A stretch of 64,000 bases of DNA from Chloroflexota bacterium (GTDB lineage Bacteria; Chloroflexota; Dehalococcoidia; Lucifugimonadales; JACPQL01), in contig JACPQL010000008.1 of NCBI GenBank assembly GCA_016190445.1, forward strand, positions 3,139 through 67,138. Reading direction: 5' to 3'. The notes beneath the pieces were generated by a model. That model ran no database searches and was not told the DNA's origin. It was given only the letters and a program-made list of their open reading frames with translations. How positions within the stretch are numbered: position 1 is the stretch's first letter; every line of letters starts with the position of its first letter. Below, one piece after another: positions 40,161 to 53,652 of the stretch. The translations under genes were made by a program, and so were the position numbers.

Positions 40161-40367
40161 ATGGCAGTAGAGAAGTCTATGGCATCGGCCAGCCTGGCAG
40201 AGGTCGTGGACCGGATCCTGGACAAGGGCGTCGTAGTAGACGCCTGGGTCCGCGTCAGCCTGGTAGGCATCGAGATCCTGGCCATCGAGGCCAGGGCGGT
40301 GGTGTCCGGTGTAGACACGTTCCTGAAGTACGCCGAGGCTGTGGGATTGACGGCGGCAGCCGCCTAA
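40161..40367 (+). CDS. gvpA: Gas vesicle structural protein GvpA
   Basis: 68 aa with [52 protein letters not shown], a near-canonical GvpA core. GAAGGAGG RBS. Confidence 0.95.
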
Positions 40368-40538
40368 GCCCCGCGCACCCAAGTGGGCTCCGGGTGGCCC
40401 CCAAGCACGCCTGGCACCGCCGGGCTCCCCTCCTCCCCAAGGAGACTTAACCTCCTGACGGTACACCCCCTGAAGGGATGCTGATGAGGCAGCGGGCTGA
40501 AGAGGCCACCCGGAGACTGGAATGAAAGGAGGACGGCA

Positions 40539-40937
40539 ATGCCAGCGGCAGAAGAGATGAAAAAGGTGGTGCAGGAGATTATCGGCGCGTACGACACCAG
40601 GGCGGCGGAGGGCGCGTCGCTGCGAGGACAGGTGTCCGACCAGAGGCAGGCAGCCCAGTCGCAACTCCACCAGATGGCCCGAGCCCATCTCACCATGGCC
40701 AAGGAGCAACGGGCCGACCTAACCAGGGAACATACCCACCTGACACGGGCAGGGGCCCAGCGCCGCGCCGATGTTGGCGCCTGGATGAAGCAGGTGACCA
40801 CGGACCACAGGGAGGCCAGAGCGGCGTGGCAACAGATGGGTTGCACCCTGCGAGAAAAGAGGGGAGGCGCCAGTGCCCTGGCCGCCGCACCCGTGTTGGA
40901 GGCCCCGGAGATAACGCCAAGGTCACGGAAGGGCTAG
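40539..40937 (+). CDS. Hypothetical helical protein in the gvpC position (between gvpA and gvpN)
   Basis: 132 aa, R/Q/A-rich and predicted helical, with an AAAGGAGG RBS. No 33-residue GvpC-type repeats visible. Confidence 0.5.
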   Translation: MPAAEEMKKVVQEIIGAYDTRAAEGASLRGQVSDQRQAAQSQLHQMARAHLTMAKEQRADLTREHTHLTRAGAQRRADVGAWMKQVTTDHREARAAWQQMGCTLREKRGGASALAAAPVLEAPEITPRSRKG

Positions 40938-41028
40938 CCGGGCTCCTGGGAGAACCGGGCGTGTGGGCCCCTTTTAGGGAATACGGGGCCTCGTCTGCTC
41001 CGCCATCGAGAAAGAAGGAGTTGAGCCG

Positions 41029-41949
41029 ATGACAACGGCCATGGACGGGCGAATGACCCTCCTGGAGCCCCGGGCACTGCCCAATTTTGTCGAGACCCCG
41101 TTTGTCCAGGGGATCGTGGAACGCGCTCTGACCTACGTCGCAGCCGGCTTCCCCATCCACTTCAGGGGAGCCTCGGGCACAGGGAAGACCACCCTGGCCA
41201 TGCACGTGGCCGCCAAGCTGGGCCGCCCCGTGGTGATGATCCACGGGGACGAAGAGTTCTCCACCTCTGACCTGGTGGGCGGCAAGCACGGGTACCGGAT
41301 GCGGAGGGTGATAGACAACTTCATCCACTCTGTCCTGAAGACAGAGGAGGACATGACTCAGAGGTGGGTAGACAACCGGCTGACGGTGGCCGCCCAGCAC
41401 GGTTTCACCTTCATATACGACGAGTTCACCCGCTCCCGGCCCGAGGCCAACAACGTGCTCCTTTCGGTGCTTCAGGAGCGGATGCTAGACCTGCCCCCCG
41501 CCAGGGAGGGAGAGAGCTACCTCCGGGTCCACCCCGACTTCGCCGCCATCTTCACCAGCAACCCAGAGGAATACGCAGGCGTGTATCGCAGCCAGGATGC
41601 TCTCAGGGACAGGATGATCACTCTTGACTTGGGGTGCTTCGACGAGGAGACGGAGGTGGCCATCACCCAGGCCAGGTCCGGCCTGGAGAGCGCCGATGCC
41701 GAGAAGATCGTGCGGGTCGTCCGCGGCCTGCGGGACTCCGGAGTGTGCGAGTTCGCCCCTACCGTGCGAGGCTGCATCATGGTGGCCAGAGCCATAAAGG
41801 TGCAAGGCGGGGCCGTCACTGCTGAAGACGCTCAATTCCAGCACCTGTGCCAGGACATCCTGGCCTCGGAATCATCCCGAGGTGGCGGAGAGAGCCAGAC
41901 ATCGAGGGTAAGAGAGGTGCTGGACAGCCTCATCGCCCGCTATTGCTAG
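41029..41949 (+). CDS. gvpN: Gas vesicle protein GvpN (AAA+ ATPase)
   Basis: Walker A GASGTGKTT, Walker B FIYDEFTRS, and typical GvpN length and context. Confidence 0.9.
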   Translation: MTTAMDGRMTLLEPRALPNFVETPFVQGIVERALTYVAAGFPIHFRGASGTGKTTLAMHVAAKLGRPVVMIHGDEEFSTSDLVGGKHGYRMRRVIDNFIHSVLKTEEDMTQRWVDNRLTVAAQHGFTFIYDEFTRSRPEANNVLLSVLQERMLDLPPAREGESYLRVHPDFAAIFTSNPEEYAGVYRSQDALRDRMITLDLGCFDEETEVAITQARSGLESADAEKIVRVVRGLRDSGVCEFAPTVRGCIMVARAIKVQGGAVTAEDAQFQHLCQDILASESSRGGGESQTSRVREVLDSLIARYC

Positions 41950-41961
41950 CCGGAGGAGAGC

Positions 41962-50680: not shown

Positions 50681-50687
50681 CGGGGTG

Positions 50688-50780
50688 CGGAAAAGGGGAG
50701 GTGCAGTCCCGGACAGGTCGGGATTGCCGGGCCCTGGGGTGTCCCCAGAAAACCTTTCGAGGGCGGGCGGGTGGGAAGAT
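50688..50780. repeat. REP-like mosaic upstream of the Cdc48-like gene
   Basis: ctggggtgtccccagaaaacctttcgagggcgggcgggtgggaag matches the right half of 36444-36550. Confidence 0.7.
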
Positions 50781-50857
50781 GTCGGTTGTACACGAGGATG
50801 TCAACAAAGCCAAGCAACTTCTAGCGGCGCGCGGTCGGCCTGCGGAGGGAGCCCCAC

Positions 50858-53014
50858 ATGGCAAATGACACCACCCCACAACCCCTGACCCTCACCGTGG
50901 CTGAGGCCCTGGCCAAGGATGTCGGCAGGGGCATCGCCAGGATGGACCCCAGGGACATGGCGGTGCTGGAGCTCCAGGCAGGCGATATCGTCCAGGTGGC
51001 AGGCAAACGGGCCACGCCGGCCAGGGCCATGCCAGCCTACCCTGAAGACCGCGGCAAGGGCACCGTCCAGGTGGATGGTATAACGCGGGAGAACGCTCAG
51101 GCCGGCCTGGGAGAACGGGCACAGGTCCAGAAGACCGCCTTTGAGGGGGCCGCCGCGGTCGTCCTCTCCCCCACCGCCCCACCCAAGGCTTTTCCACCTG
51201 GGAACGACGCCAGGCACCTGGGGCGTGCCCTGGAGGGGCTGCCAGTCATCCAGGGAGACAGGGTAAGGGCCACCCTCTTCGGCAGCCGCTACCGGGAGTT
51301 CTCGGTGGCGGAGGCCACTCCGAGGGGCGTGGTGGTGATCGGCCCCCGCACCCTCATCAGGACCAAGGGGACTGATGCGCCTGCCAGGGAAAAGGGCGGG
51401 ACCACCTATGAGGATATCGGCGGCCTCCGCAAAGAGCTCCATAAGATACGCGAGATGATCGAACTCCCCCTGAAGCACCCCGAGCTCTTTGAGAGGCTGG
51501 GGATAGAGGCCCCCAAGGGCGTCCTGCTGCACGGGCCGCCGGGCTGCGGCAAGACCCTTATCGCCCGGGCGGTGGCCAACGAGACCGACGCCTCCTTCTT
51601 CCACGTCAGCGGCCCTGAGGTCATCCACAAGTTCTACGGGGAGAGCGAGGCGCACCTGCGGGCCCTCTTCGATAAGGCCAGCGAGAAGGCGCCCGCCATC
51701 ATCTTCATTGACGAGATAGACGCCATCGCCTCCCGGAGGGAGGACGTCCGGGGCGACCAGCAGGTGGAGAGGCGTGTGGTGGCCCAACTCCTGGCCCTCA
51801 TGGACGGCCTCAAGTCCCGGGGCCAGGTGATCGTCATCGGCGCCACCAACATCCCCCAGGCGCTGGACCCGGCACTCCGAAGGCCAGGAAGGTTCGACCG
51901 GGAGATAGCCATAAGCGTCCCCGACAGGATCGGGAGGCTGGAGGTCCTCCAGGTCCACACCCGAGGGATGCCCCTGGCCCAAGACGTGGGCCTGGAGAAG
52001 CTGGCCGAGGTCACCCACGGCTTCGTGGGGGCGGACCTGGAGGCGCTCTGCCGCGAGGCCGCCATGACCACCCTGCGCCAGGTCATGCCCCGCATCCAGC
52101 TTGACGGCGACCGCATCTCCTACGAGCTCCTCTCCGAGCTAGAGGTAACCATGGACGACTTCCTCCAGGCCCTCAAGGAGGTGGAGCCCTCGGCCATCCG
52201 GGAGGTCTTCACCGAGGTCCCCAACGTGAGTTGGGACGAGGTGGGTGGCCTTCAGGAGGCCAAGCGTGCCCTGGTGGAGAGCATCGAGTGGCCACTGAGG
52301 TACCCGGACCTCTTCCGCGAGGCCAATACCAGGCCACCCAAGGGGATTCTCCTCTCCGGACCCCCCGGCACGGGCAAGACCCTACTGGCCAAGGCGGTGG
52401 CGAGCCAGAGTGGGGTGAACTTCATATCCGTCAAAGGGCCAGCCCTCCTCTCCAAATGGGTGGGCGAGTCAGAGAAGGGCGTCCGAGAGGTGTTCAGGAA
52501 GGCCAAGCAGGCCAGCCCCTGCATCATATTCTTCGACGAGATAGACGCCCTCGCCCCGGTGCGAGGCACTGGGGGCGACTCCCACGTCACCGAGCGGGTC
52601 ATCAGCCAGCTCCTGACTGAAATGGACGGTATAGAGGAACTCACGGGCGTGGTGGTGCTGGCCGCCACCAACCGGCCGGACATCATTGACCCCGCCCTGT
52701 TGCGGCCCGGCAGGTTCGACATCCAGATAGAGTTGCCCATGCCCGATGAGGAGGCGCGGAGAGAGATATTTGCCATTCACACCCGCGGCAAGCCCCTGGC
52801 CAACGACGTGGACCCGGACAGGCTGGCCAGGGCAACGGCCGGCCTGACGGGCTCGGAGGTGGAAGCCATCTGCCGCAGGGCCTCCATGCTCGCCATTCGG
52901 GAGTTTGTGGGCGATGCCTCACCTGACTCCCCACCCAGGGAGGCGGGCCCCTTCCAGGTGGCAGCCAGGCACTTTGAGGAGACCCTGCACCAGGCGAACA
53001 GGCGCCAGCGATGA
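50858..53014 (+). CDS. Cdc48/VCP-like AAA+ ATPase (N-domain plus two AAA modules)
   Basis: N-domain (LTVAEA...GIARMDP...LQAGDIVQV), D1 Walker A GPPGCGKT with IIFIDEID, D2 Walker A GPPGTGKT with IIFFDEID. Confidence 0.9.
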
Positions 53015-53652
53015 GACGACTCCTGTATGTCCCCATCATCCACGACGAGGCGGACCTGGGGAGCGCTGGGAAGGCCCTGCGGGAGAAGAGCGCTGCCCTT
53101 TCGGGGGAGTGGCGGTGGACGCTGCACCAGGAGACGGTGGGCGGGTTCTGGGACGAGGTGGCTGCCTACCTGCGCTCCTTTGCGCCCCACCGGCTAAAGG
53201 TGTACCAGGACGGGCTGGCCGCCGACGGCGAGATGGGCAGGCGAATCGTCGAAGAGGCGGCGCGGCGAGGCAGCAGGAACTACCGGCTGGTCCTGGACAT
53301 GCTCCATCGGGGGGCCGAGCTTCGCAAGACAGAGGACCCTACTTTGCTTCTGCTGGAGCGCGAGAGCATCCTCCGCCCGTCACCCGACAGCGAGCGGCTG
53401 GGTCTCATGCACCAGCGAGATGGGTTCATAGCCGAGACCATCGGGGCGACCCTCAAGGAAGGGGAGGTGGGGGTGCTCTTCATCGGGGCCTCCCACGACG
53501 TAGCGTCCCGCCTGGCACCCGATATCTCTGTGGAGATGGTCAAGGACCCGGAGCAGGTACAGGTCTACTTCAATGAACTGCTGCGGGGGCGCGAGGACAG
53601 CGAGTTGGAGAAGCTTGCCCGCTACATGCGGTCGCCCATAGGTGGCCAGTGA
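53011..53652 (+). CDS. Hypothetical protein translationally coupled to the Cdc48-like ATPase
   Basis: 213-aa ORF with an ATGA overlap onto the preceding stop. An N-terminal strand-His ([10 protein letters not shown]) and a late GxxH ([10 protein letters not shown]) weakly resemble the TraB/Tiki/ChaN-type pattern. Confidence 0.6.

Follow-up and report, generated by a model that had tools for sequence, protein, structure and literature searches.

A gas vesicle gene cluster from a Dehalococcoidia bacterium and its relatives probably form a widespread class carrying a dedicated set of chaperones and a Cdc48-type unfoldase

Gas vesicle (gvp) gene clusters have been described from Halobacterium (gvpACNO/DEFGHIJKLM), Anabaena, B. 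megaterium and Serratia, and GvpN is the usual AAA+ protein of these canonical clusters. Hsp20 proteins (GvpH/GvpQ) and ArsA homologues are already known in gvp clusters (PMC2963123), the hydrophobic GvpM of Halobacterium has GvpH, GvpF and GvpL as binding partners (PMC6107691), and heterologous gas vesicle expression leads to proteotoxic stress (PMC12848028). Here, we analyse a 64,000-nucleotide stretch of a Chloroflexota bacterium (Dehalococcoidia; contig JACPQL010000008.1, positions 3,139 to 67,138 of the forward strand), referred to at its full length as the window, in which 18 co-directional genes, all on the + strand, fill positions 40161–53652. This block shares with the canonical clusters a core of gvpA, N, F/L, G, J, K, O, an S/M-like gene and Hsp20, and ArsA also occurs in some relatives (L058 and L062). 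To this core the present class of clusters adds an Hsp70, a GvpL/F protein with a J domain (GvpL/F–J), DnaJ-type zinc-finger proteins, a second small heat-shock protein (sHsp) fused to a helix-turn-helix (HTH) domain, a Cdc48/VAT-type ATPase and X213, a protein of 213 residues. In the window, 13 gvp genes, the last of them of the GvpA family, are followed by Hsp70, the HTH–sHsp fusion, Cdc48 and X213, in this order; an earlier note on this DNA had placed four such genes here on the same strand, and every gene that it names is confirmed at its place.

Comparison of sequences makes it probable, at roughly 0.68, that the window holds one member of a widespread and apparently undescribed class of gvp clusters that is co-inherited with a dedicated proteostasis set. 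This set would consist of a gvp-specific Hsp70, a GvpL/F protein with a J domain, at least two sHsps, a VAT-like Cdc48 and X213. In the searchable full-text literature, which leaves subscription-only publications outside its scope, we found neither an Hsp70 nor a J domain or a Cdc48 reported as part of a gvp cluster, and the same holds for the zinc-finger proteins, the HTH-fused sHsp and X213. The same classes of protein make up the sHsp (IbpA/B)–DnaK/DnaJ/GrpE–ClpB triad, namely a co-aggregating holdase, an Hsp70 targeted by a J protein and a ring-shaped AAA+ threading motor. However, the AAA+ protein described here is of the Cdc48/VAT type with an N domain, whereas ClpB has an M domain; the J domain resides on a client-specific GvpL/F adaptor and no GrpE is encoded; and its genes are part of an organelle gene cluster, in contrast to the heat-shock regulon of the triad. 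No ClpB is found in the window cluster, and the likeness to the disaggregase triad is one of function only.

For a survey of linkage, X213 was chosen as the most specific anchor. Scanning one genome per GTDB species with an X213 alignment yielded 55 loci, with labels of many phyla; all related loci come from metagenome-assembled genomes (MAGs), and phyla are given throughout as labelled there. Gene content was established by tblastn with all window proteins, and linkage was counted at the 26 X213-anchored loci with at least 6 kb of sequence upstream of X213. Every one of these carries gvp genes, with three or more at 25 of the 26, and an sHsp (26/26); Cdc48 is present at 24 of 26 and Hsp70 at 18 of 26. 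X213 loci without gvp genes are nearly all cut by contig ends; one exception is a distant X213 homologue from a MAG with the label Nanoarchaeota. The MAGs in which orthologues of X213, Cdc48, the sHsp and Hsp70 co-localise with gvp genes bear the labels Chloroflexota, Desulfobacterota, Nitrospinota, Acidobacteriota, Verrucomicrobiota, Armatimonadota, Actinomycetota and Coprothermobacterota; the linked loci number dozens and their labels span at least seven phyla. With Hsp70 as the second anchor, homologues 59–62% identical to the window protein were located within gvp clusters in 6/6 cases looked up, all in the order ...gvpK–gvpF–gvpS–HSP70–(HTH)sHsp–CDC48–X213, and in several of these relatives the Hsp70 start abuts or overlaps the stop of the preceding gvp gene. 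GvpL/F–DnaJ proteins, the third anchor, have Cdc48 immediately upstream in 3/3 cases looked up. The comparison suggested in the earlier note, of whether orthologues of the module co-localise with gvp genes in other genomes, has thus been made and turned out positive with each of the three anchors.

Two gene orders occur among these loci, and the window follows the Chloroflexota type. In Desulfobacterota, Nitrospinota and Verrucomicrobiota the order is N–(o114)–N–F–sHsp–CDC48–F/J–X213–F–G–O–J–K–F–S–...–HSP70, so that the module is interleaved with gvp genes, which argues against a merely adjacent operon. That the proteostasis set belongs to the gvp locus, as the note had put forward, is supported by the co-localisation across phyla, by the two gene orders and by the domain fusions described below. 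With Cdc48 56–77% identical across the loci of all phyla, the clusters seem to have spread between phyla by horizontal transfer.

No other single finding argues as strongly for an action of the cluster Hsp70 on Gvp proteins as a domain fusion, since J domains exist to recruit Hsp70. The GvpL/F paralogue F1 (353 aa, 42489–43550, +; PF06386, 206 bits) carries a C-terminal tail of about 105 aa (residues ~245–353, 43221–43547, +) that aligns with the bona fide J domain (...FHPDKYPGD...) of its orthologues. The orthologues that bear HPD come from Desulfobacterota, Nitrospinota, Verrucomicrobiota, Coprothermobacterota and also from several clusters of the Chloroflexota type, with J domains that reach 57.6 and 60.3 bits on PF00226. 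The window tail alone has no Pfam DnaJ (PF00226) match, and its identity as a J domain rests on homology to the orthologue domains; the degenerate J-like tail of the earlier note therefore stands as a homologue of real J domains, though not through a family match of its own. An AF2 model of F1 has the GvpF fold, matching structures 4QSG and 6L5D at E 1e-13, and places tail helices at residues 253–262, 271–288 and 294–313, in J-domain order (I–III); a whole-chain fold search recovered the GvpF fold alone, with no separate match for the tail. PF06386 and PF00226 occur together in more than 110 of the best 120 protein clusters, proteins that are publicly named just “GvpL/GvpF family”. The F1 tail is a decayed J domain whose counterpart in most orthologues still has its HPD, and this homology ties Hsp70 directly to a Gvp protein. 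A scan of the window cluster for CxxCxGxG or HPD J proteins gave none. Stand-alone DnaJ-type CxxCxGxG zinc-finger proteins (PF00684) lie inside Desulfobacterota-type gvp clusters; their genes are found at 794–1147 and 13829–14896 of L018, and several are present in L063 and L064. It looks as if DnaJ had been split, with its J domain on GvpL/F and the zinc-finger proteins separate.

The Hsp70 itself (613 aa, 47635–49476, +) matches PF00012 with 608 bits (E 1e-182) and aligns end to end with G. kaustophilus DnaK. Its nucleotide-binding and substrate-binding domains are full-length, and it carries the DLGTT, DLGGGTFD and LLDVLPLSLG motifs. On TIGR02350 (prok_dnaK) it scores 651 bits, which falls short of the cutoff of 822.55 for a housekeeping DnaK, and eight other gvp-linked Hsp70s, at 648–780 bits, are all below this cutoff as well. 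The nine gvp-linked Hsp70s tested have about 570–600 aa and no grpE or dnaJ neighbours; they are flanked by gvpS and sHsp genes. The best 120 homologues are mostly ~575–600 aa long and 59–66% identical. Taken at the level of sequence, the gvp-linked Hsp70 appears to be a divergent DnaK-like clade with a short C-terminus. Loss of the J-contact residue R167 of DnaK was considered for the window protein and ruled out, the Arg of ...LRIVNEP... being conserved. At L003, the HTH–sHsp gene is missing and the Hsp70 C-terminus is truncated and divergent.

The Cdc48/VAT-type double AAA+ ATPase (718 aa, 50858–53014, +) is composed of CDC48_N, CDC48_2 and two AAA domains. It scores 941 bits on TIGR01243 (cutoff 803), and its best match in the PDB is VAT (5G4F, 751 bits). 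With archaeal VAT/Cdc48 and actinobacterial Cpa it shares the N domain (CDC48_N and CDC48_2) and the D1 and D2 rings, the D1 loop being aromatic as in VAT. D1 and D2 each retain intact Walker A and B motifs, and the pore loops read KFYGESE and KWVGESE. Simple motif patterns applied to 34 gvp-linked Cdc48s show that most keep both Walker pairs, a D1 loop K[FY]YGESE and a D2 loop KW[VIM]GESE. Unlike VAT and Cpa, the present Cdc48 lacks the HbYX motif for docking to the 20S proteasome: none of the gvp-linked Cdc48s examined has such a tail, and the window protein ends in ...HQANRRQR. It further differs from them in being bacterial and located in gvp clusters, with an sHsp gene upstream and X213 downstream. 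Cdc48 of the window type looks like an active threading unfoldase that would not dock to the proteasome. In the Cdc48 region of L004 (4052–6172), the reading frame ends at a stop after 294 aa, whereas the tblastn alignment extends beyond it, which may reflect a pseudogene or an assembly error.

X213 (53011–53652, +) starts with an ATG that overlaps the Cdc48 stop by 4 nt, which bears out the translational coupling noted before. We found 373 homologues, mostly in Chloroflexota MAGs, and the family comprises ~1230 representative clusters. Its invariant residues are His, Asp and Glu and include H11, E108 and the G159-x-x-H162 motif, and its structure is modelled at a pLDDT of 91. Like members of the TIKI/TraB/PrgY/GumN/ChaN superfamily, X213 is of alpha/beta type, has a His that follows strand 1 and shows a GxxH motif late in its sequence; however, it has about half the size of TraB, its first motif is PxxH rather than GxxH, and its matches stay below family cutoffs. 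Window X213 has no match to TraB/PrgY/GumN (PF01963), which matches 15 of 25 X213 members weakly (best E 2.5e-5, with the bit scores shown below the family cutoff); one member matches ChaN, and including more distant relatives made the TraB link no stronger. In Foldseek, the two matches of highest probability, neither of them significant, are the bacterial toxin 6A7H (probability 0.77) and HopBA1 (0.33), both of the related EreA/ChaN-like group. X213 is fused in frame to the C-terminus of GvpL/F in P0441, a fragment, and forms the output domain of the response-regulator receiver proteins P0460 and P0495. X213 is enzyme-like, and because of the translational coupling it may serve as a partner enzyme of Cdc48. 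Tandem X213 paralogues, one of them shorter (~190 aa), occur at the Acidobacteriota/Elusimicrobiota loci L032, L037, L040 and L047, and the representative search also reveals a large subfamily of short X213 proteins.

The HTH–sHsp fusion (243 aa, 49949–50680, +) joins an XRE-type HTH to a GvpH-like alpha-crystallin domain, with HTH_3 at 32.4 bits (above its cutoff), GvpH PF05455 at 33.5 bits (cutoff 22), HSP20 PF00011 at 30.4 bits and NF041800 at 155 bits (cutoff 140). The fusion is thus real, as the earlier note had described it, but its start is most likely at 49949 and not at the first ATG at 49769, since homologues have 229–243 aa and a conserved promoter occupies 49911–49944. The note had also assigned a canonical GvpH to the core. 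An sHsp (Hsp20) is indeed present at the GvpH position (200 aa, 45261–45863, +; PF00011, 35.6 bits), between gvpJ and gvpK as in relatives, but the GvpH Pfam model is matched by the HTH fusion instead.

In most loci, the HTH–sHsp gene is directly upstream of Cdc48. In 16 of 18 sequences (17 loci and the window), it is preceded by the promoter consensus GTATTGACATATGTTTAAACATATGTTATAAT, a near-consensus −35/−10 pair whose 17-nt spacer contains two ACATATGTT repeats, and a weaker copy scores in L002. The promoter–operator site lies 37–62 nt before the HTH–sHsp start codon. A position weight matrix (PWM) of the site finds essentially one match per locus, always at the HTH–sHsp gene; the putative sigma70-like promoter with embedded repeat operator at 49911–49944 (+) is its only match in the 64 kb of the window, and in the five scanned loci with an HTH-less sHsp it finds none. 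A generic promoter and terminator scan gave nothing above shuffles, except for a site at 49902–49931. The simplest reading is that HTH–sHsp autoregulates the sHsp–Cdc48–X213 unit; in that case, the gvp genes together with Hsp70 would make up another unit, upstream of it. In the HspR/HAIR–DnaK and HrcA/CIRCE–GroEL systems, a DNA-binding protein is likewise tied to chaperones and its operator overlaps a chaperone promoter. Here, in contrast, the XRE HTH and the alpha-crystallin domain are in one polypeptide, and the putative operator, to which the fusion would bind, is the repeat pair in the spacer.

How might these components work together? From the gene identities, linkage, domain fusions, intact ATPase and pore-loop motifs and conserved promoter and operator described above, we infer the protein–protein and protein–DNA contacts, the clients and the direction of the process (assembly or quality control). 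GvpH-type sHsps would keep the hydrophobic proteins of the GvpA/J/S family soluble. GvpL/F–J could bind shell clients through its GvpF fold and, if its HPD is intact, recruit and activate the cluster Hsp70. The Cdc48 hexamer may thread out mis-assembled or aggregated shell protein, in parallel to ClpB in the sHsp–DnaK–ClpB triad, with X213 as its possible partner or a downstream enzyme, while HTH–sHsp would bind the operator within its own promoter and set the level of the sHsp–Cdc48–X213 unit. A more far-reaching picture, which we consider less likely than not, is that of a purpose-built remodelling machine servicing the vesicles of many uncultured anaerobes, in which GvpL/F–J aims a private Hsp70 at shell subunits, a VAT-like Cdc48 and a TIKI-like X213 extract GvpA from the amyloid-like shell so that it can be repaired or recycled, and the HTH–sHsp acts as a new kind of repressor-chaperone in one polypeptide that senses free shell protein and adjusts the amount of the machine.

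Several observations weigh against a gvp-dedicated proteostasis set, or against its full function in this genome. Hsp70 is absent from 8 of the 26 well-flanked X213 loci, partly owing to contig ends. All examples come from MAGs, so that vesicle formation by their hosts is a prediction. Such a module is not generally required, since model organisms, among them Halobacterium, Anabaena, B. megaterium and Serratia, form vesicles in its absence. In the window, the HPD of F1 is replaced (QLHGG), as it is in the nearest relatives, and a J domain without HPD cannot stimulate Hsp70 canonically; the foldase with a J-like adaptor that had been suggested is thus weakened for the window genome. No nucleotide-exchange factor is encoded in the cluster. 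The window Hsp70 has a unique in-frame insertion of 38 aa (GPWRWSQKGPIGG...SSRQ) in the nucleotide-binding domain (window 48406–48519), which is absent in 16/16 aligned gvp-linked homologues and in G. kaustophilus DnaK, and the hexamers of the window promoter are weaker than consensus. Together with the decayed J domain, these features would fit relaxed selection on the window module, in which all reading frames are intact. Finally, for X213 a fold search against the PDB and BFVD and a profile search against PDB sequences returned no significant match.

What else could account for the association? The main alternative, which we consider rather unlikely, is that the module, and chiefly Cdc48 with X213, is a machine for disassembly or recycling rather than an aid to assembly: surplus or collapsed vesicles cannot be re-inflated, and their GvpA would be pulled out and passed to an X213 hydrolase or to cellular proteases, so that slow-growing anaerobes could shift their buoyancy without dilution by growth. 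In its favour, a Cdc48 of the VAT type whose two rings both have aromatic pore loops is a processive unfoldase, and here it is translationally coupled to a protein that resembles an enzyme, with His, Glu and Asp residues that are invariant and a weak similarity to the TraB/TIKI superfamily. In addition, the sHsp–Cdc48–X213 unit has its own putative regulated promoter apart from the gvp genes, and most of the hosts are anaerobes from sediment and groundwater. However, X213 is not demonstrably a protease, GvpL/F, which carries the J domain, is an assembly factor, and Cdc48 is found amid assembly genes in Desulfobacterota-type clusters. Turnover and quality control are not distinguished by these data, and the two readings are not exclusive. 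Very unlikely, in our view, is a mainly regulatory module, in which HTH–sHsp and Hsp70 sense free shell protein in a client-titrated feedback similar to HspR–DnaK or HrcA–GroEL and adjust expression accordingly, while taking little direct part in assembly. The fusion of an XRE HTH to an alpha-crystallin domain, the conserved operator inside a near-consensus promoter of HTH–sHsp genes, the two-component genes that often flank the clusters and the X213–receiver fusions are all compatible with it; yet the operator occurs once per locus, solely at the fusion's own gene, which points to autoregulation and not to control of gvp genes. Moreover, HTH-less lineages still keep sHsp, Cdc48, X213 and Hsp70, and a full unfoldase and a J domain on GvpL/F would be left unexplained.

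There is likewise little to be expected from a general stress or quality-control island that was co-transferred horizontally with gvp islands and serves the whole proteome. Every component does come from a general chaperone family, and the apparent horizontal spread of the clusters would suit such an island, but the J domain and X213 are each fused to GvpL/F, the module is interleaved with gvp genes, and the Hsp70 clade was met in gvp clusters at each of six look-ups. Coincidental adjacency in one genome, which the earlier note had allowed for, might be argued from the gaps of 111–472 nt that set the module apart from the gvp genes in the window and from the separate promoter of part of the module; it has virtually no chance of being correct, as conserved linkage at dozens of loci with at least seven phylum labels, recovered from three independent anchors, excludes coincidence. 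We therefore favour a class of gvp clusters with its own proteostasis set, to which the window module would belong.

The remaining genes of the window block are co-directional gvp genes and small companions, and the gvpA-family, N, F/L, G, J/M/S, K and O genes all score above the Pfam gathering cutoff. The block opens with gvpA for the major shell protein (68 aa, 40161–40367, +; PF00741, 58.6 bits), which is 76–95% identical to GvpA at loci from other phyla. It is followed by orf132 (40539–40937, +), a conserved hypothetical gene without a match in Pfam and NCBIfam; homologues lie at the equivalent position in L059 and L060, where the query aligns at several offsets, which suggests internal repeats, and orf132 may encode a GvpC-like surface protein. 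gvpN (41029–41949, +; AAA_5, PF07728, 69.5 bits) encodes an AAA+ ATPase that is 52–72% identical to GvpN of other phyla, and adjoins orf114 (41962–42306, +), a small protein without a family match above cutoff whose homologues are directly 3′ of gvpN in 10 loci of several phyla. F1 is followed by the GvpL/F paralogue F2 (43550–44323, +; PF06386, 205 bits), gvpG (44336–44587, +; PF05120), gvpO (44599–44904, +; PF05800) and a gvpJ-like gene of the GvpA family (44911–45189, +; PF00741), and the in-cluster sHsp gene by gvpK (45867–46187, +; PF05121), the GvpL/F paralogue F3 (46190–46999, +; PF06386, 221 bits) and the last GvpA-family gene (gvpS/M-like, 47233–47523, +; PF00741).

Unrelated genes border the block on both sides: upstream it is preceded by genes for cytochrome-c maturation (ccm) and a DsbA-like protein, and downstream it is followed by a convergent response regulator and PEP synthase. 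The response regulator (53659–54648, −), whose C-terminal half has no family assignment, was dropped as a candidate member of the system, as it shares only receiver-domain similarity (35–42%) with regulators near other clusters. Of the REP-filled gaps described in the earlier note, one clear family of REP-like intergenic repeats (CGAGACTCCGATGAAGTCGGAGCTCA...GAGCGGC) holds up, with near-identical copies at 42399–42435 and 54879–54915, which have the flank GCTCGCCCTTCGACAGGTCCGAC in common, and a weaker copy at 49632–49668; short GGGGTGTCCCC palindromes in the window are not enriched over shuffles. An Rfam search of 39000–55000 detected no RNA family, for instance no RNA thermometer. Elsewhere in the window (9727–17255), a tandem array of four paralogues that encode extracellular solute-binding proteins of family 5 (~590–600 aa each), followed by an MFS transporter gene, looks ordinary. 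At related loci, response regulators and histidine kinases often flank the clusters (L057, L059, L030, L038, L062 and L064). Genes for 23S-rRNA-intervening-sequence proteins (four-helix-bundle, bAvd-like) are repeatedly inserted among the gvp genes of Desulfobacterota-type clusters (11655–12044 and 17013–17369 in L018, 11565–11930 and 13255–13620 in L027, 17221–17577 in L064). Two-domain ArsA-type ATPases stand alongside the Hsp70/Cdc48 module at 4323–6401 of L058 and 17929–19989 of L062, and the window encodes none.

These clusters touch on how cells keep the extremely hydrophobic and aggregation-prone GvpA in solution, bring it to the growing shell and insert it there, and on the role of GvpF/L. 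In E. coli and mammalian cells, many gas vesicle clusters do not work or prove toxic (10/15 clusters in PMC10344784; proteotoxic stress in PMC12848028), and “non-gvp” genes have been deliberately excluded from such screens; cluster-encoded chaperones are candidates for better expression of acoustic reporters. HTH–sHsp with its putative operator could provide a compact sensor of unfolded protein, and X213 represents a family of more than 1000 representative clusters without an assigned function. The GvpL/F–J fusion beside a private Hsp70 would make at least one GvpL/F paralogue a client-binding co-chaperone adaptor. A gvp-dedicated Cdc48 would supply a bacterial Cdc48 with a defined physiological client, the first such cellular client if this is true, and active shell disassembly may be possible; it would then be the first known active disassembly and quality-control pathway for a bacterial protein-shelled organelle.

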